Part shown: positions 4,903 through 27,034 of the stretch, piece after piece
Layout of the letters: every line of letters starts with the position of its first letter
How positions within the stretch are numbered: the stretch's first letter is position 1
NCBI GenBank assembly: GCA_963705375.1
Contig: OY970071.1
Location: forward strand, 330,001-362,000
DNA from: Candidatus Saccharimonadota bacterium
GTDB lineage: Archaea; Micrarchaeota; Micrarchaeia; Micrarchaeales; Micrarchaeaceae
Direction: 5' to 3'
DNA length: 32,000 bases
Position numbers and translations under genes: made by a program
The notes under the pieces: model-generated
What the model was told of the DNA's origin: nothing
What the model saw: only the letters and a program-made list of their open reading frames with translations
Databases searched by the model: none

Positions 4903-4995
4903 ATCTATGCTTGAGATCCGCCTTCCAATACTCTTTTAATTCATGGTTTAATAACCTATTTGTTGATACTGAAAGGCATTTAGAGTTTGCACGTG

Positions 4996-5003
4996 TATAA
5001 AAA
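4996..5003 (+). promoter_or_regulatory. TATA-box-like element (TATAAAAA) upstream of the HAD gene
   Basis: TATAAAAA lies about 32-39 bp upstream of the ATG at 5035. This fits an archaeal promoter with a very short or absent leader. Confidence 0.45.
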
Positions 5004-5034
5004 GGGCACCTGCGACATTTTGAGAGGGTTTTCG

Positions 5035-6858: not shown

Positions 6859-6999
6859 GCTTATTTTTGCGAAAGATAATTAATAAGGCATGCGAAGAGC
6901 CTGTTGGCGCACACTATTTATATTCTAAGAAAGACATTTCCTGTAAGTGATTGCTTGAAAACAAAGCTTGCGTTGGACAATCAGACTAAGATCAAAAAT

Positions 7000-8124
7000 A
7001 TGGTAGACCGCACTGATGGTAATTGGGCAACGCTTATTGACGTGAAGAGAATAGTGAATCCCAATGACGGGCCCATCAAGCTTATTTATCTCGCATCCGG
7101 CTCTGATGTAGCATATCCCCTCGCAGCAACAGGAGCCACGGACATGAGTTACATTGACGAAGTGGATTGTGTAAGGCAGATAAGTGACAATGTAAAACAG
7201 GTCGGCGGAAGATACCGTAGGGAATTAGGCTTGGGAGAAGATAGAACCGAGATAAACTTCAAGTGGAACAAGGAAGACAGGAAGCTTATCTTCCACAAGC
7301 TAAACATAACGAATGAGACGATCGGCCAACTTCAAGCAGATATGCAGGATATCGATGTTGTTTTTCTGAAGTTTTCTGTGTACAAGGGATACGTCCCGAC
7401 TGAAAAAGCCATAGAGGCGCTCAAGATTGGAGGCTTCTTTATATCGGATGCTTCATCGAGCCCATTGCACTTGGGTGAGGATAGCAGCCTAACACCGAAT
7501 AGTCTAGGATTGAAAGAAATACCGCTCAAATCTAGCCACAATTCCTTTAAGTGGATGGGAGGAGGAAACAGTCTGCTGCTATACCAGAAGACAAGGCAGA
7601 TGCCCAAGATCGGAGAGATGTTAGAGTTCGACGAGCTTTTTGGCAGGATTCGCAGCATCAGAAACGGCTTAATTAACGACGAAGATGTTGGTTCTAGTAA
7701 GAGCGAAAATGGCACAGGCCAATTTTCAGAGCTTGTTGGACGCGGTTACAAGAAAAAATTGATAGATCTGAAAAGACGGTTTGATGAATTGCCGTCTGAA
7801 GCCAGAGAAGAGATTAAACGAAGAACGATAAGCATATTGGTGGATGCGCCGGACATGAAGCTCGATGCTTATGATATTCATAGTCTAGGAGGATATTTCG
7901 AACCTGGATATGAAAGAAGGATTATTGTAGATTCTGAAACTGGTCGTTTAGTCCCGATATCCGAATCTCTGGCTAGAAAGCTAAACCTAGAAGATACGCA
8001 ACACGGCAGAGAGCTGAGTATAGAGGATGTGAATCGGTGGGAGAAGACGATCCAGAAACAGTTTGAGAGATATGTAGAAGATCGGAGGAATGATTTTAGA
8101 GAAGTCTTTAAGGACGGGGTTTAG
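7000..8124 (+). CDS. Hypothetical protein with a possible Rossmann/methyltransferase-like N-terminal half
   Basis: Long ORF with an ATG at 7000; the track start at 6904 is a TTG. LIYLASGSDVAYPLAATGA...YIDE, DVVFLK and LKIGGFFI loosely resemble class I MTase strands. No firm motif. Confidence 0.55.
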   Translation: MVDRTDGNWATLIDVKRIVNPNDGPIKLIYLASGSDVAYPLAATGATDMSYIDEVDCVRQISDNVKQVGGRYRRELGLGEDRTEINFKWNKEDRKLIFHKLNITNETIGQLQADMQDIDVVFLKFSVYKGYVPTEKAIEALKIGGFFISDASSSPLHLGEDSSLTPNSLGLKEIPLKSSHNSFKWMGGGNSLLLYQKTRQMPKIGEMLEFDELFGRIRSIRNGLINDEDVGSSKSENGTGQFSELVGRGYKKKLIDLKRRFDELPSEAREEIKRRTISILVDAPDMKLDAYDIHSLGGYFEPGYERRIIVDSETGRLVPISESLARKLNLEDTQHGRELSIEDVNRWEKTIQKQFERYVEDRRNDFREVFKDGV

Positions 8125-8189
8125 GCATCGGCAGAACACTTAGAGCAGAATGATCCTCTAGCAACCAGTAAACTGGAAGCTTGTAGAAC

Positions 8190-8206
8190 CTCGGTTCCGG
8201 ACCGAG
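8190..8206. terminator. Hairpin between convergent genes (CTCGGT-TCCGG-ACCGAG)
   Basis: A perfect 6-bp stem in the 132-bp gap between the convergent CDSs ending at 8124 and 8257. Confidence 0.3.
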
Positions 8207-8256
8207 CAGAAACAGGAATAGCAATAAAACGCATTGGTTTTAAGCAACCCCATTAC

Positions 8257-10041
8257 TTAGTCTTCGACATAGTCTCCGGACGCTTCCTTCTGCGCCTTTA
8301 ATTCTTGTTTTGATGGGATGTGGGCAGGGATCGCGATGTCCATGAGCCTCAAGAATGAATTGGTGAGGTTTCCAGACCAGATTATGTCCGTATCGAAAGC
8401 GTGTTGCGATTTGTACGTTTCGGCAAGAGCGGCCTGCTCATACATTATTCGGTCAAAGAGCAGCTTATATGCGTATTCTGGGCCAACTGTGCCCCGCATC
8501 TTCGTAAGGAACGCCTGGAACTCTTCTTGATCGAAAATTGATGGCGAGAAAGTGAGCTCATGGAATTCTAAGAGTGCTGCAAACCACGAGAGCTTGTAGG
8601 AATATAGTTGATTTGCGTGTGGAAGGGTCTGGAATTTTTTAGCACCTTGCCCATCAAGCCACGCTATTGTGAATAACAAATTGGGTTCGATACCGACCGC
8701 TCCGTGTTCCATCATTTCTTTCAATTTGCCATTAACATAAACTAATGTGCGTTCTAGATTATGGTTTTCGAAGTGGGCGTCCAGAGCATTTATCATGCCA
8801 TTAAGTTCTTGGTCAGAAGTGACTGGAGGTTTCTCGACCACAGGCTCTGTGTTCTTGAGTATGCGCTTTAAAATTTCGATGCGCGTTTCTTGCTTATTGT
8901 TCCCAGGGGGAATTTCGTCGTAGAAAACCTTATTGGGCTTCGGATTACTTTTGACATGCATACGAACCTCTTCAGGGAGAGCATCTTCGTCAGAAGGGTA
9001 TAAACCGACCTCTCGGCATATTCCCTGGAGATGTGCAGAATAGGATTCGCCGTCATAGGCTATTGCCCTGTTTATGACGTCATCTAGATCTGCCCCTCTG
9101 CCAGTAGTATAATAACCAATGAGTGTCTTGACGAGTTCGTGCACATAAGGCCTTTGGTCATGGGCTATCTCTCTAAAGCTTGACCAGTTGAGGTCGATGG
9201 CATCGGTCCTGTTTTGATCCAACTTTGCCAGTGTGGTGCCCGGAACCTGTCTCATGTCCATCAGAAGCTCGTTTATGTGCAAAGGCGTTACATCGAGGGC
9301 GTAGCAACGGATCACCAGATCTCCAAGACCAAATTCACCGTGCCCCATTGCAAATATGTTTTTGTCCACCGCACGCAATATGTCCACTTGCGGATCATTA
9401 TTCACGAGGGCAGGGAGCAGCTTGTTTATAAAACTGTCCGCACTTCCCTTGGCCAATAAATGGTTGGAGGCATAATAGTCGATGGATTCGATGAATAGTT
9501 TTTGTATGTCAGCATCGAGTTGTGGCACCTTCTTGTAAAGGTCCAAAAGCAAGAGCGTCTGCTCTGGACTATGCATAGATACGCCATCCCTTATTGCACG
9601 CATTGCCCAACCACGAAGCGAGCCACATTCAATATTTTCTGGTTTTGAAAAGACATAGGTGAAAACTTCGAGCGCGGCATCGAAATGTTCTCTTAGATCT
9701 TCCAGACCCAGAGGGGGCCTGCAACTCATTAGCTCCAGGAGGAGGTGCTCATATGCCCGACCGCGTTCCTTAACAGCATCAGCGTCTTGTCCTTTGAAGA
9801 ACAGCTCACCCCAGGCGTGTGCCTGGTGTTTGAAGAAGCGGGTTACGCCTTCAGGATCTTGGAGAAGCGTGGGCAGATCATTGGACGCACTTGGTTTCAT
9901 GATGTGTTCGATTTCTGACAGCATGCCCCCCATGGACTTGCCATACTGTGCTATCGATGCCACCTTATCTCGCGAAGGTTTTGCTTCCTCATCATGATTG
10001 GGTTTTTCTTCCTGCTGTACGTTGCTTTTCGTGGCTTTCAT
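8257..10041 (-). CDS. Hypothetical protein, 594 aa, apparently alpha-helical, no recognisable domain
   Basis: Long uninterrupted ORF. An ATATATAT box at about 10071-10078 lies roughly 30 bp upstream of the ATG at 10041. Confidence 0.6.
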   Translation of the reverse strand: MKATKSNVQQEEKPNHDEEAKPSRDKVASIAQYGKSMGGMLSEIEHIMKPSASNDLPTLLQDPEGVTRFFKHQAHAWGELFFKGQDADAVKERGRAYEHLLLELMSCRPPLGLEDLREHFDAALEVFTYVFSKPENIECGSLRGWAMRAIRDGVSMHSPEQTLLLLDLYKKVPQLDADIQKLFIESIDYYASNHLLAKGSADSFINKLLPALVNNDPQVDILRAVDKNIFAMGHGEFGLGDLVIRCYALDVTPLHINELLMDMRQVPGTTLAKLDQNRTDAIDLNWSSFREIAHDQRPYVHELVKTLIGYYTTGRGADLDDVINRAIAYDGESYSAHLQGICREVGLYPSDEDALPEEVRMHVKSNPKPNKVFYDEIPPGNNKQETRIEILKRILKNTEPVVEKPPVTSDQELNGMINALDAHFENHNLERTLVYVNGKLKEMMEHGAVGIEPNLLFTIAWLDGQGAKKFQTLPHANQLYSYKLSWFAALLEFHELTFSPSIFDQEEFQAFLTKMRGTVGPEYAYKLLFDRIMYEQAALAETYKSQHAFDTDIIWSGNLTNSFLRLMDIAIPAHIPSKQELKAQKEASGDYVED

Positions 10042-12172: not shown

Positions 12173-13243
12173 TTGCTTAAGAGGATTTTTGATAGTTCTA
12201 TAGACTATCTGCAGGTGCTTGACGAGAATAGCAACGTAGACTCTGCACTATTTCCCAAGGGCCTTGACGACAACAAGATAGCAGAGATGTACAAGTTCCT
12301 CTCATTCACAAGAGCGGTGGATGCGAAATGCGTGAGCCTGCAAAGGCAGGGAAGGCTTGCGACATATGCCCCGTCGCTCGGAGAGGAGGCGACGCAGGTG
12401 GGCAGCGCAATGGTGATGCGCCAGAATGACATATTCGTGCCTAATTTCAGGCAGCATGGCACTTTCATAGTAAGAGGCATGCCCCTTGACATATTCTTCT
12501 TGTACTGGAGAGGATTCGAGAACGGGTGCGTGATACCGCAGAACGTGAAAGGGCTTCCGTACATAGTGCCGGTTTCTACGCAGCTTCTTCATGCGGCAGG
12601 CATGGCTTTTGCGCAGAAATATGCGAAGAAAGACGTCGCAGTAATAACGTATGTCGGCGATGGCGGCACTTCTGAAGGAGACTTCTACGAGGCGATGAAC
12701 TTTGCAGGAGTCTTCAAGGTACCTCTAGTCACGATCATAGAAAACAACCAGTGGGCAATATCTGTGCCGAGAAGCAGGCAGAGCGCAGCCCAGACGCTTG
12801 CGCAGAAGGGCATCGCCGCAGGAATAAAGTGCCTGCAGGTTGATGGGAACGACGTCATTGCAGTGTACAAAGCTGTCAGCGACGCGATAGCGGATTCGAA
12901 GAACGGACCTACGCTCATAGAGTGCGTCACATACAGGATGGGCATGCACACGACATCGGACGATCCTACGAAATACAGGAGCGACGAAGAGGCAAAGGCA
13001 TGGGAAAAGAAAGATCCCATACTTCGCGTCAGGAAGTACCTTACCGGCAAAGCGCTCTGGAACGATACCCTGGAGGCAAGCATGCAGGATGACTTCAAGA
13101 AAAAGATAGACGAAGCGGTAGAAAAGGCAGAAGCGTTCAAGCCGGATCCAAAAGAGATGTTCGAGCACGTTTACAGCTTCATGCCGCAGGCTCTGAAAGA
13201 CGAGTACGATGAGGCAGTGAAGGAAAACTTCTGGCAGGTGTGA
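12173..13243 (+). CDS. 2-oxoacid (pyruvate/branched-chain) dehydrogenase E1 alpha subunit, TPP-dependent
   Basis: TPP-binding motif GDGGTSEGDFYEAMNFA...ENNQWAIS, and MGMHTTSDDPTKYR (the region of the E1a phospho-loop). TTG start inferred; an alternative GTG lies at 12215. Confidence 0.88.
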   Translation: MLKRIFDSSIDYLQVLDENSNVDSALFPKGLDDNKIAEMYKFLSFTRAVDAKCVSLQRQGRLATYAPSLGEEATQVGSAMVMRQNDIFVPNFRQHGTFIVRGMPLDIFFLYWRGFENGCVIPQNVKGLPYIVPVSTQLLHAAGMAFAQKYAKKDVAVITYVGDGGTSEGDFYEAMNFAGVFKVPLVTIIENNQWAISVPRSRQSAAQTLAQKGIAAGIKCLQVDGNDVIAVYKAVSDAIADSKNGPTLIECVTYRMGMHTTSDDPTKYRSDEEAKAWEKKDPILRVRKYLTGKALWNDTLEASMQDDFKKKIDEAVEKAEAFKPDPKEMFEHVYSFMPQALKDEYDEAVKENFWQV

Positions 13244-13247
13244 TATT

Positions 13248-14213
13248 ATGCAAATGAACATGGCAGCAGCAATAAACAATGCGCTTGATAGCATACTTGC
13301 CGAGAATCCAAATTCAGTGATACTTGGAGAGGACATTGGAAAAGATGGCGGAGTCTTCAGGGTCACTGACGGTTTGTTTGACAAATACGGCCCTAGCAGG
13401 CTGATGGACACGCCGCTTGCCGAATCCGGCATAATAGGCGTTTCGATAGGCATGGCGCTTGCGGGCATGCTTCCGATTCCAGAGATACAGTTTGCAGGAT
13501 TCTCATACTTGAGCTTCGATCAGCTCGTAAGCCACGCTGCGAGGTACAGGAGCAGGACACGCTCAGTTTTCGCAGTGCCGATGATAGTCAGGATGCCGGT
13601 AAGCGGAGGGGTAAGGGCGCTGGAGCACCATTCGGAGAGCCCGGAAACATACTATGCACATCCTGGTGGATTGATAGTGGTAGAGCCATCAACGCCTTAC
13701 GATGCAAAGGGCCTACTCATACGCGCATCGCACATGCACGACACTGTGATGTTCCTCGAACCAACAAAGCTTTACAGGTTGTTCAAGCAAGAGGTCCCAG
13801 AAGACAGTTACGAAGTTGAGATAGGCAAGGCAAGTAAGATCAGGGACGGTGATGACCTGAGCATAATCACCTACGGCACGATGGTGAACGTTGTGAAGAG
13901 CGTGACGGAGAAGAAGAACCTCTCTGCGGACATAATAGACCTGCGCACCATAAACCCGATAGACAACGACGCAATAATAAAGAGTGCGAAGAAGACAGGC
14001 AAGGTGCTCATAGTGCATGAAGCACAGAGAAGTTTCGGAGTAGGGGCGGAGATCTCTGCAAGAGTGGCTGAAGAGGCAATATTCGAACTGGATGCGCCGA
14101 TAATGCGCGTAGCAGCACCTAGCATACCGTATCCGTTTCCTGGTTATGAGCAGTTCTACTTACCAAACGAAGACAAGATATCGAAGGCGATAGACAAACT
14201 GCTTGCGGAGTGA
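13248..14213 (+). CDS. 2-oxoacid dehydrogenase E1 beta subunit
   Basis: A transketolase-like pyrimidine-binding and C-terminal domain pattern (DTPLAESGIIGVSIGMALAG, EIQFAGF). It starts 4 nt after the E1a stop. Confidence 0.9.
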   Translation: MQMNMAAAINNALDSILAENPNSVILGEDIGKDGGVFRVTDGLFDKYGPSRLMDTPLAESGIIGVSIGMALAGMLPIPEIQFAGFSYLSFDQLVSHAARYRSRTRSVFAVPMIVRMPVSGGVRALEHHSESPETYYAHPGGLIVVEPSTPYDAKGLLIRASHMHDTVMFLEPTKLYRLFKQEVPEDSYEVEIGKASKIRDGDDLSIITYGTMVNVVKSVTEKKNLSADIIDLRTINPIDNDAIIKSAKKTGKVLIVHEAQRSFGVGAEISARVAEEAIFELDAPIMRVAAPSIPYPFPGYEQFYLPNEDKISKAIDKLLAE

Positions 14214-14217
14214 GCGT

Positions 14218-15435
14218 GTGAAGGAGATACGATTTGTAGATGTCGGAGAGGGCATAACGGAAGGCCACCTGCAGAAGTGGCTCGTCAAGGACGGCGACCA
14301 GGTGAAAGAAGACCAGAGCATAGTGCAGGTAGAGACCGACAAAGCGATCGTAAACGTCCCTGCACCAATAGACGGAATGCTAAGGATAGTCGCAAAGGAC
14401 GGCACAACGCTTCATGTGGGCGACACGCTTGCGTACATAGGAACACCGCAGGAGCTCACCAACATTCCAAAGCAGCAGACGCAGCCAGCTCAGAAAAGCG
14501 CACCGTCAGCTGCAGAAAAACCTGCAGCAGCACGTGCAACAGCAAAGGCAGATATACTTGCAACGCCTGCGCTGCGCAAGCTAGCGCATGAACTCGGCGT
14601 TGACATGACGCAGGTGCACGGCACCGGACCTGCAGGCCGAATACTCGAAAACGACGTGAGAGCGTATGTAGGAGGGACGCAGCAGAAAGCAGTGCCCAAG
14701 TTCTCAGAGCTGCTCGAAGAAAAGCACGAAGAAGAGATAGAGCGCATTCCGCTCACGCAGACCAGAAAAGCAATCGCAAAGAACATGGAGGCTTCGTTGG
14801 CGATACCGGCAGCGGTCCACATGGACCTTATTGATGCGCAGGCGTTGTTCAATGTTGTGCAAAAGGAGAAGGCACGGATCCATAAAGATCTGGGAGTGAA
14901 GCTGACGTTCCTGCCCTTCATAATAAAAGCCACTGTAGAAGCGCTTAAATTGAATCCGAATTTCAATGCGAGCTACGACCATGATAAACTCGAGATAATA
15001 AGGAAGAAATACTACAACATGGGGTTGGCCGCAGAGGCGCCGGACGGGCTCAAGGTCGTAGTCATAAAGAACGCTGACAAGAAAAGCATCATAAGCATTG
15101 CAAAAGAGATACAGCAGTTCCACCAGAAGCTGATCGACCAGACAATAACTCTTGAGGAGATGCGTGACAACACATTCACAATAACGAACATAGGCAGCCT
15201 CGGAGGAGGCTTCCTCTCGGTTCCGATAATAAACCACCCTGACGTTGCGATACTTGGCACGCACCTGATAAGGGACATGCCGGTGGTAAAGGACGGCAAG
15301 ATTGTTGTCGGCAAGGTGTTCCCCGTTTCTCTAGTGTTTGACCACAGGGTCGTGGACGGAGCAGAAGCAGTCCGTTTCTGCAACGACATAAGAGAGCGCA
15401 TAGAGGATGTTGACTTCTTAGAGTTAGAAGAGTAG
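14218..15435 (+). CDS. Dihydrolipoamide acyltransferase (E2)
   Basis: Lipoyl domain with VETDKAIVNVPAP. Ala/Pro linker. Subunit-binding domain ATPALRKLAHELGVDMTQVHGTGPAGRI. Catalytic DHRVVDGA. GTG start at 14218 chosen because it gives MKEIRFVDVGEG; the track start at 14203 overlaps the E1b stop. Confidence 0.9.
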   Translation: MKEIRFVDVGEGITEGHLQKWLVKDGDQVKEDQSIVQVETDKAIVNVPAPIDGMLRIVAKDGTTLHVGDTLAYIGTPQELTNIPKQQTQPAQKSAPSAAEKPAAARATAKADILATPALRKLAHELGVDMTQVHGTGPAGRILENDVRAYVGGTQQKAVPKFSELLEEKHEEEIERIPLTQTRKAIAKNMEASLAIPAAVHMDLIDAQALFNVVQKEKARIHKDLGVKLTFLPFIIKATVEALKLNPNFNASYDHDKLEIIRKKYYNMGLAAEAPDGLKVVVIKNADKKSIISIAKEIQQFHQKLIDQTITLEEMRDNTFTITNIGSLGGGFLSVPIINHPDVAILGTHLIRDMPVVKDGKIVVGKVFPVSLVFDHRVVDGAEAVRFCNDIRERIEDVDFLELEE

Positions 15436-15448
15436 GTGTGTTGATTAC

Positions 15449-16816
15449 ATGGTCATGGGTTCGTTGCCTCAGCAAGTTGATTTGGCAGTCATAGGAGGAG
15501 GTGTCGGCGGCTATTTTGCGGCGATACGCGCAGCGCAGCTTGGCATGGATGTCGCCATTGTCGAAAAGGACAGGTTAGGAGGGCACTGCCCAAACTATGC
15601 GTGCATACCATCCAAGACGCTGATACGAATAGCTGACATTTTCTATACAGCACAGCATTCCCAACAGTTCGGAATAAAGGCATCTGCGACTATCGATGCC
15701 AAGAAGATGCTCGAATGGCGCATGGGCGTGTCGAAGAAACTTGAGGATGGCGTCGCATATCTCTGCAAGTCCAACGGCATTGACGTAATCAATGCAACGG
15801 CCACATTCATTTCGCCAAATTCACTCCAACTCACCAACGGAGTAACCTTGACATTCAAGAAGGCAGTGATTGCAACTGGTTCCGAGCCTACGCCGCTCAA
15901 GGGATTCGAGTTCGGCAACGGCATATTAGATTACAAACAGGCACTCATGCTTGATTACATACCGAAATCGCTGGCGATAATCGGCGCGGGCTATGTCGCA
16001 GTGGAACTCGGCATGCTCTTTTCGAAATTGGGATCCGAAGTGCACATAGTAGCAAGGTCCGATGTGCTTCGTACGTTCGACAGCGATGCAGTATCTGTAA
16101 TAAAGAAGTGCATGCAGGAGCTAGGGATAACGGTGCACACAGGAGTTACTCCAGTGGCACACGACAGCAACTCTGTGACGCTAAGCAATGGAGACAGGCT
16201 CACTGCAGCCACGATCATTGTTGCGATAGGCTTATCGCCATACACAGCAGGCCTTGAGCTCGAGAACGCGAAGGTCGAACTCGACGAGAAGGGCTTTGTA
16301 AAGGTCGACGATTCGTTGAGAACATCAAATCCGAGCATTCTCGCTGTAGGTGACGTGATAGGAGAACCTATGCTGGCGCACAAGGCAATGCGCCAGGGAA
16401 TAGTGGCGGCAGAGGTCGCTTCCGGAACGAACACATCCTACGACAACACAGTAGTTCCTGCAGTCATATTCTCCGATCCTGAAGTGGCAATTGCAGGTAG
16501 CGTCGAAGAGACTGAAAGGATAAAAGTGACTAAATTCCCGATGACTGCGATAGGGCGTGCGATCGCACTGAACACTACAAAGGGCTTCGCCAAGATAGCA
16601 TACGACGAGAACAGCATAGTGAAGGGAATTGAGATTGTATCCGAAGACGCAAGCGCCATGATATCAGAGGCCGCACTCGCGATAGAGATGGGTGCGACGC
16701 TGGAAGACATAGCGGACACGATACATCCGCACCCCACATACAGCGAAGCAGTGCAAGAAACGGCGGAGGCAGCCCTCGGAAGGCCTATACACTTTTTCTA
16801 CGGCAACAAGAAGTAA
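15449..16816 (+). CDS. lpdA: Dihydrolipoamide dehydrogenase (E3)
   Basis: FAD motif VIGGGVGG. Redox disulfide GGHCPNYACIPSK (CxxxxC). NAD motif IIGAGYVAVE. C-terminal HPHPTYSE. Confidence 0.9.
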   Translation: MVMGSLPQQVDLAVIGGGVGGYFAAIRAAQLGMDVAIVEKDRLGGHCPNYACIPSKTLIRIADIFYTAQHSQQFGIKASATIDAKKMLEWRMGVSKKLEDGVAYLCKSNGIDVINATATFISPNSLQLTNGVTLTFKKAVIATGSEPTPLKGFEFGNGILDYKQALMLDYIPKSLAIIGAGYVAVELGMLFSKLGSEVHIVARSDVLRTFDSDAVSVIKKCMQELGITVHTGVTPVAHDSNSVTLSNGDRLTAATIIVAIGLSPYTAGLELENAKVELDEKGFVKVDDSLRTSNPSILAVGDVIGEPMLAHKAMRQGIVAAEVASGTNTSYDNTVVPAVIFSDPEVAIAGSVEETERIKVTKFPMTAIGRAIALNTTKGFAKIAYDENSIVKGIEIVSEDASAMISEAALAIEMGATLEDIADTIHPHPTYSEAVQETAEAALGRPIHFFYGNKK

Positions 16817-19471: not shown

Positions 19472-19502
19472 CCGGAATTTTGCCACAAAGTAAGGTAAAG
19501 CC

Positions 19503-19511
19503 CATCAAACC
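19503..19511. repeat. CATCAAACC copy 1 (target duplication, left of element E1)
   Basis: The same 9-mer occurs at all four junctions: 19503, 20769, 21043 and 26750. The shared string is CCATCAAACCG if the flanking bases, which could belong to the IRs, are counted. Confidence 0.8.
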
Positions 19512-19531
19512 GACTCTGGGACAAAAGTCGA

Positions 19532-19693
19532 TTACTTTGATTTCCGCACCATGACGTAAACCATCTTGCCAATGTACTCTTTAGGACAATCGATTTTTGC
19601 TCCTGTTCCGAACCGAGTTACAGGTTTCTCAAAAACAACTACAACATCGTCTCCGATTTTAAGTTTGTTCTTTATTACTTCAATTTTCCTCAT
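19532..19693 (-). CDS. Small transposon-encoded protein, DUF2080/AbrB-SpoVT-like (53 aa); below the ORF-track cutoff
   Basis: Hand translation: MRKIEVIKNKLKIGDDVVVVFEKPVTRFGTGAKIDCPKEYIGKMVYVMVRKSK. The pattern fEK.V..fG..AkI..PKeyiGK.VyV matches my memory of archaeal DUF2080. GGTGTG lies 4 nt upstream of the ATG. Confidence 0.55.
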   Translation of the reverse strand: MRKIEVIKNKLKIGDDVVVVFEKPVTRFGTGAKIDCPKEYIGKMVYVMVRKSK

Positions 19694-19756
19694 TTACCAC
19701 ACCGTATAATATATATTAATATATATTTAAATACTTTTCCTTTCAATAATAATATC

Positions 19757-20752
19757 ATGGCAAAAACCAAAAGGTTAACGAATAGACAGTTCCGAAGATT
19801 TTTCAAGGAGTTCAAGAAACTGATTGAGATTTACGGCGAAAAAACGGCAGAAAAACACACTGACTGGAAAACATATGAAGAAGAATATGCAAATAGGATA
19901 AGATATGTCGCGAAAGAGTTGAACATTCTTACAAAATCAGCAATAGACTCTATTGAGATGAAGGTATCCAAATTCGGAAGACCTGCAAAATTGTCTCTCC
20001 AACAGAAGGTGGTTGCGCTTATCCTAAAATCGATTTTCTGCAAAAACAACAGACCAATGGCCGGACTGATGTCCCTTTTTGGCGCATTTTGTGGCATTGA
20101 CATTAGTTACAAAACTGTCGAAAGGATGTATTCTGATGAACTGGTGCGAATTGTTTTGCACAACATGTTTATTCTGACGATAAAACGAAAATGTGATAAG
20201 AAAATAGATGTGAGCGGAGACGGAACGGGTTACACACTAACAGTAACGAAACATTACCGTACACAAGTCGATAAAGAAGGGTACAGGAAATTCGTGTATT
20301 CGTTCAATCTCATCGACATAAAGAATGGGTTGTACATATGTTATGGCTCGGGTATACGATCTGAAAAGGAAGCATTCGAAAATGCAATGAAGCTGCTCAG
20401 AAATGTAGAGGTGGCCACAGGGATAACAGTCAATAGTGCAAGGTTAGACAGGTACTATAGTTACCAATCAACTTTGAAGTATTTTGACGACAAAACTGTT
20501 TTGTACATAATCCCAAAGAGCAACACAACAATAAATGGCCCGTCTAGATGGAGGAAGATATTCAGACGGATGATGAAGGATCCTCTGTCCTACTTGATAG
20601 AGTACTACAAAAGGGAGAAGTCTGAGAATGGTTGGTCTGTAGATAAACGGATGGTTGGGTGGAAAATATGGCAGAAAAGAAATGACAGAATCGATACAGC
20701 AATAAGTTGTACTGCAACACTTCACAACTTATTCAGAATCGGTTATGGATGA
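19757..20752 (+). CDS. DDE transposase of E1
   Basis: VSGDGTGY, ARLDRYYS and REKSENG contexts. The block YIIPKSNTTINGPSRWRKIFRRM is homologous to YIPFKSNTTAIGGGNKARLWRRMF in the transposase at 22530-23723. Confidence 0.8.
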   Translation: MAKTKRLTNRQFRRFFKEFKKLIEIYGEKTAEKHTDWKTYEEEYANRIRYVAKELNILTKSAIDSIEMKVSKFGRPAKLSLQQKVVALILKSIFCKNNRPMAGLMSLFGAFCGIDISYKTVERMYSDELVRIVLHNMFILTIKRKCDKKIDVSGDGTGYTLTVTKHYRTQVDKEGYRKFVYSFNLIDIKNGLYICYGSGIRSEKEAFENAMKLLRNVEVATGITVNSARLDRYYSYQSTLKYFDDKTVLYIIPKSNTTINGPSRWRKIFRRMMKDPLSYLIEYYKREKSENGWSVDKRMVGWKIWQKRNDRIDTAISCTATLHNLFRIGYG

Positions 20753-20768
20753 CTTTTGTCCCAGAATC

Positions 20769-20777
20769 CATCAAACC
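20769..20777. repeat. CATCAAACC copy 2 (between E1 and E2)
   Basis: It directly abuts the IRR of E1 and the IRL of E2. Confidence 0.8.
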
Positions 20778-21042
20778 GAGTCTGGGACATAAGTCAACCA
20801 TTATTTTGGCACTCTACCTTTTCAGGTCTTCTATATTATCTCTGCCAAAATCTTTATCGTTTTGCATCCAAATTATATTGACCAGAGCAAGGCGGATCAG
20901 TAATAATGTCCGTTCTGTCGTCAAAGAACGATAGAAAAAGGCCGTTTAGACCGAGTGAATCCAAAAGGCATCTTAAAACAGCAAGTAGCCTTTTCTATTC
21001 TGGTTCTTATCTAGGAGTGAGAAGGACTTTTGTCCCAGAGTC
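20778..21042. mobile_element. MITE E2 (265 bp, non-autonomous relative of E1)
   Basis: IRL is GAGTCTGGGACATAAGTC. The reverse complement of IRR is GACTCTGGGACAAAAGTC (16/18, and identical to the IRL of E1). No credible ORF. Flanked by CATCAAACC. Confidence 0.8.
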
Positions 21043-21051
21043 CATCAAACC
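21043..21051. repeat. CATCAAACC copy 3 (between E2 and E3)
   Basis: It directly abuts the IRR of E2 and the IRL of E3. Confidence 0.8.
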
Positions 21052-21076
21052 GGCTTTGTGTAAAAAGGTGTGAAAA

Positions 21077-22078
21077 ATGATGGGTTCTTACACAATAAAA
21101 GGCGTTTTTACACAAAAATATGCTCTCTATCTTTATGCATCCAATACAAACCTTTTTAATAATCTCATCAGAAGTAGATATATGGTAGACAGTAAATTCT
21201 ATTACTATAGGATGTGGTGCAAAGATTATAAATTCAATAAAGACCTCAGTAATTTAGCTGCGAAACAAAATTGGCAAGAAAATACTAAAAAATACAAGAT
21301 ACCTCATGAGGATGGGACTTTAGAGGAAATCGCCATAGAAAAAGTTGATGATAGATATTTTGGCAAAATAATGAAAACAAAACCCAAAAAGCAACATTTT
21401 GGCAAAAATGAGGGGGAAGTTAAAGTCGGAGAGCTAAAAACAAAATTTGAATTGGTTGGAGAGAAAGAAAGAGATATAACATATTTTGCGTTTTTACCTT
21501 ATAAATTAAAAGACCTATTATTTTTAACAGAGATTCACTCTGGAAATAGGGGTATGAATACAATTAAAGAGTTCTTTAATAAATGCATGCCATCAACTTA
21601 TGAATTTAAATCTGAGCCACTTAAAACCCCCAAATTACTTGATTTGAAAAAATTTGCACCAAGAGAAATTAAAAAGATTCTACTCACGTATAAACGGGAT
21701 GTTCCAGAAGGCATACCTGTTGAAGATGCAATCAAAAAACTTAGGATTGAAGAAGATTGGCAAGTTATTGTTGGGGCAAAGATTAGATTGCAAAGAAAAA
21801 AACAGAATGTTTTTGTCACTCTTGACAACGCATTTAAAACGCTTTTTGGAAATGCATTAACTTCGGCAATCGATGAAGGGGTTGACCTTCCTAATATCCT
21901 ATCTAACATAGGTGTTGCTTTCAAAGAAGACAAAAGTAATAGAACACAGGATATTTTGAAAGACTATGAGAGGGAAGTGATATATCTGCAAAAGGGTAAT
22001 TTGAATGATGCGCAAATTAGTGATACTCTATTTGAAAAACTTACTACAAAACTAAAAGAGTTGGAGAAACATGGATAG
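21077..22078 (+). CDS. Hypothetical protein, 333 aa, Lys-rich, soluble, no recognisable domain
   Basis: Long ORF. GGTGTG lies 4 nt upstream of the ATG at 21077. An alternative ATG at 21182 has a TTTTAATAA box about 25 bp upstream. The stop overlaps the next ORF's start. Confidence 0.65.
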   Translation: MMGSYTIKGVFTQKYALYLYASNTNLFNNLIRSRYMVDSKFYYYRMWCKDYKFNKDLSNLAAKQNWQENTKKYKIPHEDGTLEEIAIEKVDDRYFGKIMKTKPKKQHFGKNEGEVKVGELKTKFELVGEKERDITYFAFLPYKLKDLLFLTEIHSGNRGMNTIKEFFNKCMPSTYEFKSEPLKTPKLLDLKKFAPREIKKILLTYKRDVPEGIPVEDAIKKLRIEEDWQVIVGAKIRLQRKKQNVFVTLDNAFKTLFGNALTSAIDEGVDLPNILSNIGVAFKEDKSNRTQDILKDYEREVIYLQKGNLNDAQISDTLFEKLTTKLKELEKHG

Positions 22079-22544
22079 CCGTTCAGTATTTGCTGATTTT
22101 ATATACACCTTAATTATCGTGAGTATATACTTTTTGATAATGTTTTACGGAGTTCATAATTCCAGTCCATTCTCATATTTACAAGATACTTCTGTAGTGT
22201 CCTCATTAATCATAATTATCACTTCGATATTGGGCGTTATTGCAGTTATAATTACATTATTCTCCGTTTTTGAAGAAGCATTCAAAAATAACGAGATTAT
22301 CAAAGCATTAAAGAAAAGAAACGATTTTATTCAGATTTTTAAAAGATATAGTGATTCTATTTTTGTTATGTTTTTTTCAATTATTGTGATAATTATTACT
22401 TGGATTGCATCCAACAATTTGAAACAATTAGCACCTTATCTATTACCAATAATGACTTTTGCCATAATCATCTCTTTTATTAGGACGTATAGATGCTTTA
22501 AAATATTCAAATTATTGACTGATGCAATCTCAGATAGTAGATGA
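22071..22544 (+). CDS. Small membrane protein, 157 aa, four predicted TM helices
   Basis: Hydrophobic segments: FADFIYTLIIVSIYFLIMFYGV, VVSSLIIIITSILGVIAVIITLFSVF, SIFVMFFSIIVIIITWIA, LAPYLLPIMTFAIIISFI. ATG at 22071 overlaps the upstream TAG (ATGGATAG), with GGAG upstream. Confidence 0.65.
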   Translation: MDSRSVFADFIYTLIIVSIYFLIMFYGVHNSSPFSYLQDTSVVSSLIIIITSILGVIAVIITLFSVFEEAFKNNEIIKALKKRNDFIQIFKRYSDSIFVMFFSIIVIIITWIASNNLKQLAPYLLPIMTFAIIISFIRTYRCFKIFKLLTDAISDSR

Positions 22545-23723
22545 ACTTTGAATTTCGTTGTTCACAATTACAATATTATGGCACAGCACTTTCAGCAACA
22601 ACTCATTAATCTGTGCCGTTTCTGTTTTGCTTCTTATAAGGTCGCTAAACTTTGCCTTTATCATACTGAATGTGCTCTCCACATTAGACCTTAGATGATA
22701 GTGGTTCAGAAATTCCTCTTGCTTTAACTGATAATACCAAAACATTCTGCGCCACAACCTTGCCTTGTTGCCACCACCTATTGCGGTTGTGTTGCTCTTG
22801 AAAGGGATATACGCCTGTCCGCCTATCTGTTGCACGGCGTTGTAGTTGGCAATTGAGGAATACGCCTTATCTGCCGAGACCTCGTTCATTATGAAGCCAG
22901 CGTCAAAAGTAGCATTTACAAGAGGTATAAACTTAGGGCAGTCCGCACCTTGACCTATCTCTGCCTCTACTCCAGTTATGATATTGGTTTTAACTCCTGT
23001 AATTATGTGTGCCTTAATCCAAACATGCTCTTTCTTCAGGTGGTGCTTCTCCCTGCAATAGTCGTTGAAGTGTGTAGTCCTAAAACCGCTACTGTCTACT
23101 GCGAATTTGTCCTCAACGTTTCTTAGGGGCAAGGACGATATTTGTATGAGCCTTGACAGAATTGGTGTTAATTCTGGCTTCTGTATGAAATGACCCACAG
23201 AAGCGAAGCAAGGCTTAGAAGATACAAGACTCTTATCCCTCGCTGTGCTAAGGTCGCTCATAAACCTGCGAAGTGAGAACTGGCTATACACCTTCAAAGC
23301 TGATGCAAAGATGAGGTCTCTATAACTAGTCTTGGGGCGTCCTGTTTCACTCTGCATAGGCTCTGGCACTTCTTGGCACAGGTCTTTCAGCAATTCCATA
23401 AACTTGGTCTTTTCCTGCTCCTGATTTATGTTGTAGTTGTGCCAGTCTTGCGGATAAACTTTCTTCTTTATCGTTATCGTGGTTTCATTACCTTGCTTGT
23501 CAAACCATTTGAGGACTATGGTCATTACGGCGTAGACGTGCTTGCACGGCTGTTGCCTCAATTCATAGTCAGGGCAGTTGCACTTGAAGCCACCTTCAAG
23601 ACTTCTGCTTACCGTATAAGTGCCTCTGCCTGACTGACTCGGCACTATCCAGTTGTAAGCATCCTTTTTCTGTATTTGGCGCATCTGTGCTATCTGTTGT
23701 CCTTTCAATCTTCGTTCATCCAT
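22530..23723 (-). CDS. SWIM zinc-finger + DDE transposase of E3
   Basis: SWIM motif CNCPDYELRQQPCKH. DDE contexts FAVDSSGF, VSADKAYSS, HLRSNVESTF. ATG at 23723 is preceded by GGTGTGCAA; the track start at 23729 is a GTG. Confidence 0.85.
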   Translation of the reverse strand: MDERRLKGQQIAQMRQIQKKDAYNWIVPSQSGRGTYTVSRSLEGGFKCNCPDYELRQQPCKHVYAVMTIVLKWFDKQGNETTITIKKKVYPQDWHNYNINQEQEKTKFMELLKDLCQEVPEPMQSETGRPKTSYRDLIFASALKVYSQFSLRRFMSDLSTARDKSLVSSKPCFASVGHFIQKPELTPILSRLIQISSLPLRNVEDKFAVDSSGFRTTHFNDYCREKHHLKKEHVWIKAHIITGVKTNIITGVEAEIGQGADCPKFIPLVNATFDAGFIMNEVSADKAYSSIANYNAVQQIGGQAYIPFKSNTTAIGGGNKARLWRRMFWYYQLKQEEFLNHYHLRSNVESTFSMIKAKFSDLIRSKTETAQINELLLKVLCHNIVIVNNEIQSSSTI

Positions 23724-23736
23724 TTGCACACCTTAC

Positions 23737-23795
23737 ATATCATACATATAATATATATTATATAGCAAAGGTATTTATACCTATGTGTATGATAT
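23737..23795. promoter_or_regulatory. Divergent promoter region with a 12-bp inverted repeat (ATATCATACATA ... TGTGTATGATAT)
   Basis: The arms at 23737-23748 and 23784-23795 match 11/12 as an inverted repeat. They lie between the transposase and the RHH/RM genes. A TATTTATA box sits at about 23773-23780. Confidence 0.4.
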
Positions 23796-23802
23796 ATATA
23801 AT

Positions 23803-23964
23803 ATGGTAAAAGCAAAAAAACGCGAGGACAAAGCAGTCGCCAAATCCATTACCATAACGATAAGGCATCAGCTATTCATAGAAGCCCGAAGCATAAATCT
23901 ATCTAAATTTGTTCAGAAGAAGTTAGACGAGGAAATAGAACTGCAAAAATGGACAGAAGGTTAG
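23803..23964 (+). CDS. Ribbon-helix-helix (CopG/Arc-like) small DNA-binding protein, 53 aa; below the ORF-track cutoff
   Basis: Hand translation: MVKAKKREDKAVAKSITITIRHQLFIEARSINLSKFVQKKLDEEIELQKWTEG. A beta-strand (ITITI) followed by two helices is the RHH pattern. It ends 4 nt before the RM gene's ATG. Confidence 0.6.
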   Translation: MVKAKKREDKAVAKSITITIRHQLFIEARSINLSKFVQKKLDEEIELQKWTEG

Positions 23965-23968
23965 ATTG

Positions 23969-26695
23969 ATGGACAAAGAGCTTCTAAAGAAGAACCTTAT
24001 CAAGAAGATTGAGGACTTCGATAGTAAAGACCATGATGGGGAATCTGAAAGGGATGTATGCAGAGCGTACATAGAACCACTTTTTTCTTATCTCGGCTGG
24101 GACATGAGTAATACGGATGAGGTAAAAGAGCAAAAGAACGAACCAGAGGGAAGACCAGATTATATTTTTTATCTGAATGGTAGTATTGCACTTTTCTTGG
24201 AAACAAAGAAAGTCAAAACGATTGATGAAGCTGACATAAAGCAAGCCCTAAACTATGGCAGAAGCCGAAATAAACGCTGGTCTGTTCTATCTAATTTTGA
24301 AGAAACAATAATCTTGATATGTGATACTAAAGAAACATCTCTATCGAATCATATCTTTAGGCGCATTTCCTATAAGAAAATGACTGAAGACTTAGACAGT
24401 TTGCTATTGCTATCAAGAGAAAGTTTTGAAACTGGTTTTATAGATTCTAAAGCGCAAGATGAAGGAAGGATAAAGAAAACCATCAGAATAGATGAAGAAC
24501 TACTTAACGACATTTTGCTTTGGAGAAAAGAGCTTATAAAGTCCATAAAGACCGAAAACAAAAAGCAATACTCAAAAGAAACATTAGAAGAAATAGCTCA
24601 GATACTACTCAATCGCATAATATTCATAAGAACAGTAGAAGATAGACGGATAGAAGCACAACCAGACGAAACTATAAAATCTATCCTAAATCAGTATGAA
24701 AATAACAAATCTGTAAAAATCAAGGATAAACTAAACAAACTGTTTGAAGAATACGATAAGACCTATGACAGTAAACTATTCACTTACGATGAGCATAATT
24801 TCGGGAATAGGCATGAAAGCGAGAAAGTAGAGATAGACAATAAAACATATTATAAGATACTAAAAGAGACTTACGAGAAGAACGAGATTTACTCGTACAA
24901 GTTCGGGGATATTGATGCAGATATTCTTGGAGATATGTATGAACGGTATATAGGAAATATAGATGAGTTTAGAAAGAAACAAGGAATTTATTATACACCT
25001 ACTTGGGTAGTAGATTACATAGTAAATAATACAATCGGGCTTATGTTTGGCAATAAGTCTAAAAAAACAATTTCAGAACTGAAAATATTGGATATGGCTT
25101 GCGGTTCTGGGTCATTTCTCCTAAAGGCTTTTGACAGTTTTAATGACCATTACAAATTAAACAGAAAGAAATATTTTCAGTCTGGTCTGGATTTAATTAG
25201 CGAATCTTCAATAATAACACAAAAAACTAAGATACTAAAAGAGCACATATTCGGCGTAGACCTTGACGTAAAAGCAGTAGAGATTGCACAACTAAACCTA
25301 TTGTTGAAGATAGCAGAAACAAAACATAGATTGCCTGATTTGAAGAATAATATAAAGCAAGGAAACTCATTAGTTGAGGACAAGAACGTTGATACCGAAT
25401 ATGCTTTTGACTGGGAAAGTAATTTCAAAGAGATAATGGATAATGGTAGATTTGACATAGTAATAGGTAATCCACCATACTCCTTTACCAGAGATGCTGA
25501 TTTTACAGACTTAGTAAAAGAGTATGCTAATGAGCATTATTTCAAAGGGTTAGATTCAGTATCTAAGGGTCATGCAAGGCAGTCAGGAAAAATCAATTTA
25601 TATTCCCTATTCTTAATTAGAGGAATTCAATTACTAAAAGAAAACGGCGTATTAGGATTTATCATACCAAATAATCTACTGAGAACTACAACCTATGACA
25701 TAATAAGAGAATTTATATTGAAGAACTGCAAGATATTGCAGATAGTAGATTTAGGTGCGGGAGTTTTTGAGAATGCAACAGTAGCGACCACAATAATTAT
25801 ACTTCAAAAAGAGAAAAGCCAAATCAAAAGAAATAGAAATAAAGTATCAATAATATATGACGTAGTTAATTTTGACTTGTCGAACAAGAAGTATAAAACT
25901 CATACAGTCGGGCAAAATGAGTTTTTAGAGAATACAAGCCATGCTTTCAACATAACATCAGATAAAGAAGCAACAGAATTGCTTAATACGGTGGGCAAAA
26001 ATTCCAAACTATTGGGCGATATAACCACAATTCATGCTGGTGGGATTGCAACAGGTTCAAATAAGAAAGAAATGATACTTGATTATCCTAAAAACTCTAA
26101 ATACAAACCCATGTTAGAAGGAAAGGACATAAAACCATTTCTTGCAGAGTTCTCTAATAGATATATCTTATATGACAGAGAAAAATTGAGGAGAGCGAGG
26201 GACGAAAATATATTCTTAAGTTCGGAGAAGGTAATAACCCAGAGAATTGGAGGAGGGAAACGGGTTATTGTTGCTTCTTATGATGACAAACAGTACTATA
26301 CGTTTAATTCTACTAATTCCATTCTTCAGAAAGATAAGGAATATTCACTAAAATACATAACAGCGTTGCTAAATTCTAATCTTCTTAACTATTATTATGT
26401 TAATAAATTTACAAATGAATCTATGCTGACGGTTAATATATCCAAAACCTTTTTAGAGAACCTACCAATCAAGAGGGTAGATGAATCCAAACAAAACCCT
26501 TTCATAAAATTAGTAGATGAAATTTTGGAATTATCCAAAACTATGAATAAGGATTATAATACTAATTCGGGGATAGAAAACAGAGACAAGATAGTGGCAA
26601 AGATGGATGCAATAAATGAATTGGTATACGACTTATATGGTTTAACAGAAACCCAAAAGAAACTTGTAAAAGCATGGATAGGTGTCGGAAAATGA
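23969..26695 (+). CDS. Type IIG restriction-modification enzyme (PD-ExK nuclease fused to an N6-adenine gamma-class methyltransferase and a specificity domain)
   Basis: N-terminal nuclease motif RPDYIF...ALFLETKK (PD...ExK). SAM motif I LDMACGSGSFLL. Catalytic motif IV IGNPPY. A long C-terminal region plausibly recognises the target. Eco57I/MmeI-like architecture. Confidence 0.85.
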   Translation: MDKELLKKNLIKKIEDFDSKDHDGESERDVCRAYIEPLFSYLGWDMSNTDEVKEQKNEPEGRPDYIFYLNGSIALFLETKKVKTIDEADIKQALNYGRSRNKRWSVLSNFEETIILICDTKETSLSNHIFRRISYKKMTEDLDSLLLLSRESFETGFIDSKAQDEGRIKKTIRIDEELLNDILLWRKELIKSIKTENKKQYSKETLEEIAQILLNRIIFIRTVEDRRIEAQPDETIKSILNQYENNKSVKIKDKLNKLFEEYDKTYDSKLFTYDEHNFGNRHESEKVEIDNKTYYKILKETYEKNEIYSYKFGDIDADILGDMYERYIGNIDEFRKKQGIYYTPTWVVDYIVNNTIGLMFGNKSKKTISELKILDMACGSGSFLLKAFDSFNDHYKLNRKKYFQSGLDLISESSIITQKTKILKEHIFGVDLDVKAVEIAQLNLLLKIAETKHRLPDLKNNIKQGNSLVEDKNVDTEYAFDWESNFKEIMDNGRFDIVIGNPPYSFTRDADFTDLVKEYANEHYFKGLDSVSKGHARQSGKINLYSLFLIRGIQLLKENGVLGFIIPNNLLRTTTYDIIREFILKNCKILQIVDLGAGVFENATVATTIIILQKEKSQIKRNRNKVSIIYDVVNFDLSNKKYKTHTVGQNEFLENTSHAFNITSDKEATELLNTVGKNSKLLGDITTIHAGGIATGSNKKEMILDYPKNSKYKPMLEGKDIKPFLAEFSNRYILYDREKLRRARDENIFLSSEKVITQRIGGGKRVIVASYDDKQYYTFNSTNSILQKDKEYSLKYITALLNSNLLNYYYVNKFTNESMLTVNISKTFLENLPIKRVDESKQNPFIKLVDEILELSKTMNKDYNTNSGIENRDKIVAKMDAINELVYDLYGLTETQKKLVKAWIGVGK

Positions 26696-26749
26696 GTTTT
26701 TACACAAGCAGGTTAGTTTTTACACAGAAAGAGGTTAATACACAAAGCC

Positions 26750-26758
26750 CATCAAACC
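26750..26758. repeat. CATCAAACC copy 4 (right of E3)
   Basis: It directly abuts the IRR of E3. Confidence 0.8.
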
Positions 26759-27034
26759 GAAAGCCATATATATCTAGATAGCTCTATATCTATCAGAAGA
26801 AGAAGTTCAGATAAGGTACAGCAGTTGAATAAATCTTATCCTTGAACAAGTCAAGAAAGCACATAAAATATAAAGGTTTCATAACGGAAAGTTCTGAAAT
26901 TTTTAGCTGCTTTTGCAGCAGTCTGGGCGGCTTGAAATCTGTTAGCCGCTGAAGTTCTTCTTCTCTGATTTTTAATAAATAAACTTATTCTAGAAATTTC
27001 TTTCTGAAAGTTTGCATTAAAACGACAAAGCAGT

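Follow-up and report, generated by a model that had tools for sequence, protein, structure and literature searches.

We describe a pair of adjacent genes, here called A and B, in a stretch of 32,000 nucleotides (nt) of archaeal DNA (the window; positions 330,001 to 362,000 of contig OY970071.1, from a genome placed among the Micrarchaeota), within which all coordinates are given unless another locus is named. Gene A encodes a soluble protein whose predicted structure carries the fold of RexA from phage lambda, and gene B, which follows it directly, encodes a protein with four transmembrane helices. On balance, and with moderate confidence, we read A–B as an archaeal variant of the RexAB type of two-component exclusion or abortive-infection module. 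A sequence-only reading of the same DNA had proposed a candidate novel module of defence or abortive infection, pairing a soluble sensor with a small membrane effector; within the reach of computation this idea holds, except that the pair does have a known relative. Because A has the RexA fold, and because the order of the genes, the sizes of the proteins and the four-helix partner all match RexAB, the pair would be a diverged form of a system already known rather than something categorically new.

Protein A carries a RexA-like fold

Our first AlphaFold2 (AF2) model of A, built from 7 close sequences, was unusable (predicted local distance difference test (pLDDT) score 48.7) and was superseded by a model built on an alignment of 27 members of the A family, which reached a pLDDT of 85.9 and a predicted template modelling (pTM) score of 0.82. 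Compared with the PDB by Foldseek, this model has a sole match at E≤1e-3, lambda RexA (8twq_B; E 9e-6, probability 1.00, 319 alignment columns), and the next-best match is three orders of magnitude weaker (E 1.2e-2). The single significant match among experimental structures is thus to a protein of an exclusion system. Among the predicted viral structures of BFVD, the five best matches are uncharacterised caudoviral proteins of 277–322 amino acids (aa), with E values of 6e-9 to 3e-7 and template modelling (TM) scores of at most 0.53.

Elements of secondary structure follow one another in the model as they do in the published plan of RexA, in which a split globular domain is combined with an inserted domain and a long C-terminal helix. 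The model consists of an N-terminal globular domain built on a β-sheet (residues 1–136), an inserted domain of four strands and helices (140–247) and a long C-terminal helix (276–297); lambda RexA has a globular domain formed by residues 1–139 and 248–279, with the long helix α8, and a dimerisation domain of four strands and four helices at 143–234 (PMC11077077). Comparison of sequence profiles by hhalign gives a marginal match between the A family and an alignment of four RexA sequences (E 0.03, probability 1.6%), a match that runs co-linearly through the N-terminal domain as far as a common EPL motif just before the hinge, and nothing when the A family is set against the single lambda RexA sequence. 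On the strength of the model, we conclude that protein A carries the lambda RexA fold, a fold that the structural report on RexA relates to that of RdgC (PMC11077077). One metagenomic member of the A family among the 27, P0023, also has a weak match to the PADLOC candidate PDC-M67A (E 8.3e-4), with its residues 73–176 running co-linearly with profile positions 80–181 of 329.

Protein B is a four-helix membrane protein

The sequence-only reading had described the second protein as a four-helix membrane protein with a short amphipathic loop, and this description holds. Hydrophobic segments lie at residues ~10–26, 46–62, 97–113 and 121–137, the amphipathic loop EEAFKNNEIIKALKKRNDFIQIFKRY occupies residues 68–93 of B, in a basic loop that spans 63–96 overall, and the C-terminal tail is basic as well. 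By the positive-inside rule, B is predicted to have both termini in the cytosol (N-in/C-in), with the basic central loop also cytosolic. The hydropathy peaks of lambda RexB fall at 9–25, 50–66, 84–100 and 117–133, so that the spacing of the helices is similar in the two proteins, of 157 aa (B) and 144 aa (RexB). In an alignment of B from 12 lineages (A5), residues D9, G55, F67 and L80 are invariant and E68, R138, R141 and F146 nearly so; the motifs common to the homologues are TILGxLxxILxI..TFE, the basic loop and a C-terminal R..YRCF.IF.LL.

A and B form an obligate pair

The family is small. Among 5.8 billion clusters we found 7 close homologues of A and 8 of B, and a profile search for A over 1.84 billion representatives returned only 33 clusters, with full-length matches of about 300–345 aa; an additional protein search run with the profile, whose reach was bounded by its word index, added only five distant members. 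The A and B proteins of the window themselves match nothing in Pfam, NCBIfam, PADLOC, PHROGs or the sequences of the PDB, and PADLOC recognises their neighbour, a Type IIG restriction–modification (RM) enzyme, but neither member of the pair.

Genomic context could be recovered for 13 lineages. In every one of them A is followed directly by a homologous four-helix B of 156–184 aa, with A identity down to about 17–20%, and the membrane partner is never missing. The genes overlap by 4–14 nt at eight of the 12 junctions measured and are separated by 2–99 nt at the other four; in the window, the 8-nt overlap (ATGGATAG, 22071–22078) and the GGAG upstream of it are present as the sequence-only reading had reported, and the coupled partnership that it drew from them is borne out across the family. 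Both genes are under purifying selection, with ratios of nonsynonymous to synonymous polymorphism (pN/pS) of 0.16–0.27. A–B is an ancient, obligate two-gene unit, whose pairing goes far beyond chance.

All identified hosts are archaeal: metagenome-assembled genomes of Candidatus Micrarchaeota, which hold the close relatives, one such genome of Candidatus Aenigmarchaeota, and Haloferax gibbonsii LR2-5. The distribution is sporadic and includes transposons, one plasmid and one integrase-bearing island. On a further Micrarchaeota chromosome (locus L016; OY969114.1, 10001–10534), the match to A is confined to its N-terminal 180 residues, at 57% identity, and this copy is possibly truncated or pseudogenised.

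Start of gene A and signals for expression

The two open reading frames (ORFs) lie on the same strand, at 21077..22078 (+), 333 aa as first read, and 22071..22544 (+), 157 aa. The first protein is probably shorter than that, with its start at Met36 (nt 21182) and a length of 298 aa instead of 333 aa, because close and distant homologues start there, because the extension evolves almost neutrally and because a TATA-like box lies upstream. The equivalent of Met36 is the start in three close homologues (P0002, P0004 and P0007) and in most distant members, and nearly all profile matches of the A family begin at profile positions 29–33; pN/pS is about 0.7–0.8 over the 35 codons of the extension, compared with about 0.2 over the core of gene A. 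The DNA from 21077 to 21181 is probably untranslated, made up of promoter and transposon end. The protein, which the sequence-only reading had called rich in lysine, is basic, with 56 lysines and arginines in 298 residues and an isoelectric point of 9.1.

The TATA-like box, TTTTTAATAAT, is matched by similar, identically placed A/T-rich boxes in L001, L003, L005 and L011. Its distance from the Met36 codon implies a leaderless transcript of gene A, if the known geometry of archaeal promoters applies here and the box serves as the promoter. Upstream of gene B, the GGAG motif has purine-rich counterparts in homologues; a leaderless transcript of A, with coupled initiation of B driven by the Shine–Dalgarno-like motif, would fit the layout.

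Genomic settings of the pair

RM genes or candidate defence genes lie within a few kilobases of A–B in 6 of the 13 lineages, so that the co-occurrence with defence genes for which the sequence-only reading had proposed to test homologous pairs is found in somewhat less than half of them, the other seven having no recognised defence gene nearby. A Type IIG RM gene stands beside the pair in the window and in L011, and genes for a C5-methyltransferase, an HNH protein and Vsr in L019 and L020; a type I RM system is next to the pair on a 268-kb metagenomic contig (L029). On plasmid pHGLR3 of H. gibbonsii LR2-5 (L018; NZ_CP063208.1, 12001–13418), the homologues WP_193494199 and WP_193494201, both annotated as hypothetical, lie next to a complete type I RM system, an N6-methyltransferase and a SprT-like protease; HicA is encoded in the vicinity. 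L012, in which the A–B pair is a distant one, looks like a defence island: beside the pair (4688–5110 and 5429–9371) lie a DUF6884 protein that matches the PADLOC candidate PDC-M57A (E 8e-29) and an AAA_5 ATPase of 861 aa, whose 454-aa partner is of unknown family, and the locus also holds a GIY-YIG protein and an integrase.

A 5.7-kb transposon carries the window pair just inside its left end (Table 1) and further holds a transposase with a SWIM zinc finger and a DDE core, an ORF of 59 aa and the Type IIG RM gene. The sequence-only reading had placed the pair on an AT-rich mobile element together with a Type IIG system, and rightly so: GC content falls from about 50% to 33–41% across ~19.5–27 kb of the window, within which the transposon lies, and the RM enzyme is recognised by its PADLOC model with a very low E value. 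The same left transposon end precedes A in L003 and L011.

Table 1. Features of the A–B pair and of the 5.7-kb transposon, in window coordinates
Feature	Position	Strand	Basis or remark
Direct repeat CCATCAAACCG	21042-21052 (left flank), 26750-26760 (right flank)		Flanks both ends of the element
Left terminal inverted repeat GGCTTTGTGTA	21052..21062	+	Exact 11-nt match on the opposite strand at 26739-26749
35-codon 5' extension of ORF A, probably untranslated	21077..21181	+	Homologue starts, pN/pS; contains subterminal TGTGTAAAAA/TTTTTACACA repeats
TATA-like box TTTTTAATAAT	21153..21163	+	~24 nt upstream of the Met36 ATG
Gene A, 298 aa (probable start), soluble, basic, RexA-like fold	21182..22078	+	AF2 model, Foldseek, 33-cluster family, pN/pS ~0.2
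GGAG, Shine–Dalgarno-like	22063..22066	+	4 nt before the gene B ATG, within the end of gene A; read from sequence
Gene B, 157 aa, four transmembrane helices	22071..22544	+	Hydropathy, 12-lineage alignment, pN/pS 0.16-0.27
SWIM zinc-finger and DDE_Tnp_1 (IS5-like) transposase	22530..23729	-	Pfam DDE_Tnp_1 E 6e-19, SWIM E 2e-6; NCBIfam IS5 E 1e-27
Small ORF, 59 aa	23785..23964	+	Surrounding DNA conserved (blastn)
Type IIG RM enzyme	23966..26695	+	Pfam Eco57I E 1e-37, N6_Mtase, TaqI_C, HSDR_N; PADLOC REase_MTase_IIG E 7e-97
Right terminal inverted repeat	26739..26749	-	Exact 11-nt partner of the left repeat

The transposase gene converges on gene B and overlaps its last 15 nt; its product is likely the enzyme that mobilises the 5.7-kb element. 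L011 has this gene in synteny, and remnants of it persist in L001 and L003. The DNA around the small ORF (~23736–23957) is conserved beside the transposase in L005–L009 and L011 at about 70% identity (L005 11694–11855; L011 about 3579–3806). The ORF has only weak matches to protein families (CcdA, E 1.2e-3, below the cut-off; a HicB-like PHROG, E 0.05); it may encode a small DNA-binding regulator or an antitoxin. What follows it varies: L005 has a GNAT acetyltransferase in place of the Type IIG enzyme of the window and L011. The entire gene order of the window is preserved in L011, where the corresponding place is taken by a diverged Type IIG enzyme.

Transposases with a SWIM domain abut the 3' end of B in four separate contexts. 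In the window and L011 the enzyme has an IS5-like core and is convergent with B; in L005–L009 one with an IS240/rve core takes the same position, the gene in L005 filling the slot between the stop codon of B and the small ORF just as the IS5-type gene does in the window; and in L019 and L020 a SWIM transposase sits beside an A–B pair of about 20% identity. The transposases of the window (22530–23729), L005 (10460–11611) and L019 (11555–12730) are alike in their N-terminal SWIM regions (29% identity, E 1e-7) and unrelated in their catalytic cores, which are of the DDE_Tnp_1/IS5-like kind in the window and of the DDE_Tnp_IS240/rve kind in the other two. No convincing terminal inverted repeats were found around the L005 and L019 elements. 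The overlap with the end of B is an identical 15 nt for three transposase ORFs, which might suggest a precise insertion hotspot; we reject that idea because B has a conserved TCA codon, which is a TGA stop when read from the opposite strand and so accounts for the identical length.

The transposon is the last of three elements that stand in tandem. Four copies of CCATCAAACCG(A), at 19502, 20767, 21042 and 26750, separate them (window 19497–21053 and 26750–26761), and the order is chromosome, insertion sequence (IS), miniature inverted-repeat transposable element (MITE), 5.7-kb transposon, chromosome. The IS (~19514–20766) has 18-nt inverted repeats, a DUF2080 gene (19532–19693) and an IS5-like transposase gene (19757–20752); the 263-bp MITE (~20779–21041) has the same inverted repeats as the IS. 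The three are tandem insertions into the same target of 11–12 nt. There is no tRNA integration site near the island, the only tRNA gene of the window lying at 117–188. Elsewhere in the window, a complete 2-oxoacid dehydrogenase operon occupies 12173–16816, its E3 component being a dihydrolipoamide dehydrogenase (E 3e-102 to 1EBD), and an operon of the same type neighbours A–B in L005–L010. The likeness to the L005 neighbourhood suggests, by itself, that the window probably stems from a Micrarchaeota-like archaeon.

A candidate Rex-type module and the points against it

If A–B acts as a RexAB-type module, A, with its RexA fold, would work in the cytosol, probably as a dimer that binds DNA, and would sense a nucleic-acid or nucleoprotein cue derived from a virus or a plasmid. 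It would then activate B, made in fixed proportion to it through translational coupling, and B would oligomerise and permeabilise or depolarise the membrane, damage that would halt the growth of the infected cell. In the window, the module would act as cargo of the 5.7-kb transposon, alongside the SWIM-DDE transposase and the Type IIG enzyme. DNA binding, dimerisation, interaction between A and B, membrane damage and protection are all steps that we would expect by analogy.

A number of observations weigh against this reading. An architecture of four membrane helices is generic, and the partner is not recognisable as RexB by sequence: the PADLOC model of RexB matches B of neither the window nor L012 nor L013, the Pfam model (PF15968) picks out 1 of the 12 B members, at E 0.53, and hhalign of B against RexB, as a single sequence or a small alignment, gives E values of 0.5–0.7. 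Nor does any of the 27 A members match the RexA models of Pfam or PADLOC, even at E≤10; as positive controls, the lambda proteins themselves are recognised by the PADLOC models, RexA at E 9e-110 and RexB at E 8.6e-61. The global superposition of the A model on 8TWQ is poor (TM score 0.33–0.35, root-mean-square deviation 18.7 Å), for which a differing hinge angle between the domains is a plausible cause, since large inter-domain movements have been reported for RexA.

The settings of the genes count against a Rex-type module too. Lambda Rex lies in the prophage immunity region next to cI, whereas A–B is found on a transposon, on a plasmid or in a genomic island, and no cI-like repressor or provirus genes flank it in the window or in the sampled loci; among IMG/VR viral contigs, four scans, with a reach limited to close relatives, found no A–B relative. 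To the seven lineages without a recognised defence gene nearby belong L001 and L021, where all neighbours are housekeeping genes, the pair in L001 standing between SUF/NifU genes and dnaJ-dnaK-grpE. Spontaneous loss of pHGLR3 left infection of H. gibbonsii by the virus HFTV1 unchanged (bioRxiv 10.64898/2026.09.13.751334), so the Haloferax pair is at least not active against HFTV1; this null result would be compatible with a narrow range of triggers, as in lambda Rex, but does not count as support.

Alternative explanations

The pair could instead serve addiction, with B as a membrane toxin and A as a DNA-binding regulator or antidote, in the manner of a toxin–antitoxin system that stabilises the transposon or plasmid. 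This we consider unlikely, although most of the data would agree with it and it does not exclude a role in defence. A tight two-gene unit always on the move together, on mobile DNA such as the window transposon, pHGLR3 and the integrase island of L012, suits it well; other genes of toxin–antitoxin character lie nearby (HicA on pHGLR3, the small ORF next to the GNAT gene in L005), activated effectors of the RexB type arrest growth (PMC12894663), and the indifference of HFTV1 infection to the loss of pHGLR3 is what a module not aimed at viruses would give. That the plasmid was lost spontaneously with no killing reported argues, however, against strong post-segregational killing, the protein structurally nearest to A comes from an exclusion system and not from an antitoxin family, and proximity to RM genes is typical of defence islands. 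Distinctly unlikely, in our view, is that A–B belongs with Kiwa or another known membrane-anchored defence system, or is a wholly new system in which the likeness to RexA is convergent or an artefact of modelling. Kiwa, too, combines a four-helix membrane protein with a soluble one of about 300 aa, and the low TM score of A to RexA and the weak match of P0023 to PDC-M67A would sit comfortably with such an origin; yet no Kiwa or DUF4868 model matches any of the 27 A members, RexA is the sole significant structural match in the PDB, and the soluble protein comes first here, the reverse of kwaA-kwaB.

The sequence-only reading had also considered that the pair might serve the transposon itself. 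Such an accessory, working with the adjacent SWIM transposase in target choice, transposition immunity or regulation, would make sense of the transposases found against the 3' end of B in the window, L011, L005–L009 and L019/L020, and as decayed remnants in L001 and L003, and a DNA-binding fold of the RdgC/RexA type (PMC11077077) would be in keeping. As a general explanation it is not supported, and we think it improbable: at least seven lineages (L012, L013, L018, L021, L023, L024 and L029) have A–B and no neighbouring transposase; where transposases do accompany the pair, their catalytic cores are unrelated, so that it would not serve any one chemistry of transposition; decay of the transposase in L001 and L003 has left the pair intact and still under purifying selection; and DDE transposition is not known to involve a membrane protein. 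Very improbable is a housekeeping function outside genetic conflict, as a membrane-tethered nucleoid or recombination factor of the RdgC kind. The structural kinship of RexA and RdgC (PMC11077077) and the purely housekeeping neighbours in L001 and L021 speak for it, but a family so extremely rare and patchy (33 clusters in 1.84 billion; 7–8 close homologues in 5.8 billion clusters), with a different genomic position in every lineage and, in the window, a place within a low-GC island, does not look like part of a cell's basic equipment.

Implications

Taking A–B as a RexAB-type module, we put forward a broader proposal more tentatively and with some doubt: that the pair represents a previously unreported, archaea-wide sister of the Rex systems, unrecognisable by sequence, which arrests or kills through a four-helix effector even in genome-reduced episymbionts of the DPANN group (Micrarchaeota and Aenigmarchaeota), and which has repeatedly been packaged with RM genes and SWIM transposases in small defence transposons. 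If this is true, the Rex design of a sensor plus a pore would be ancient, or would have been exchanged between the mobile elements of both prokaryotic domains, and one of the oldest known phage-exclusion systems would extend across domains. For DPANN episymbionts, which rely on a host cell, such altruistic suicide would pose evolutionary questions of its own.

In the largest survey of archaeal immunity to date, of 7,747 archaeal genomes, nearly one-third had no detected defence beyond CRISPR-Cas and RM, and the main text of that survey mentions neither Rex nor Kiwa (PMC12988326). If the pair does act as RexAB does, membrane-acting abortive infection would be added to the archaeal repertoire, in a family that current defence finders based on hidden Markov models miss entirely, PADLOC included. 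The homologue on pHGLR3 makes the prediction directly testable, as H. gibbonsii LR2-5 is a cultured model of virus and host.

Comparison with known systems

Kiwa consists of the four-helix protein KwaA and the soluble KwaB (DUF4868), of about 300 aa, encoded in the order kwaA-kwaB with the membrane protein first. The window proteins and the 27 A members match neither Kiwa in PADLOC nor DUF4868 in Pfam, even at E≤10, and there is no Kiwa structure among the top 50 structural matches of A in the PDB. The uncharacterised PADLOC candidate PDC-M67, on which we found nothing published, is alike in overall length and in the co-linearity of its match to P0023, and the other 26 of the 27 A members do not match it; from that one alignment, PDC-M67A may be a bacterial counterpart of the A family. 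Compared with accessories of transposition, which would keep strictly to their transposase within the repeats of the element, A–B shares the inverted repeats with a transposase in the window and is transposase-free elsewhere.

Lambda RexAB is the closest in layout. Both are two-gene operons carried on mobile DNA, with a soluble protein of about 280–300 aa encoded first and a four-helix protein of about 145–157 aa second. They differ in that RexAB is a phage system of bacteria and the hosts of A–B are archaeal, and in that rexA and rexB lie 15 nt apart, whereas A overlaps B and the two are coupled in translation. In lambda, RexA forms dimers that bind DNA without sequence specificity, and RexB, once activated, depolarises or permeabilises the membrane and shuts out superinfecting viruses.

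Alike in the manner of their recognition are the remote kin of RexAB: RexABpp of Pseudomonas putida (PP_5643/5644) and the actinophage systems of Sbash (gp30/31), CarolAnn (gp44/43) and Butters. As with A–B, each is known by a RexA-like fold or HHpred match and an adjacent four-helix protein with no sequence similarity to RexB. They are bacterial, prophage-encoded and shown to exclude phages, whereas A–B is archaeal and a candidate for such a role. In RexABpp, RexA was found by HHpred and structure and RexB only as its four-helix neighbour, and experiments then validated the pair through growth arrest and membrane damage (PMC12894663). Systems recognised so remotely show that the Rex architecture tolerates extreme divergence of sequence (PMC12894663, PMC11077077).

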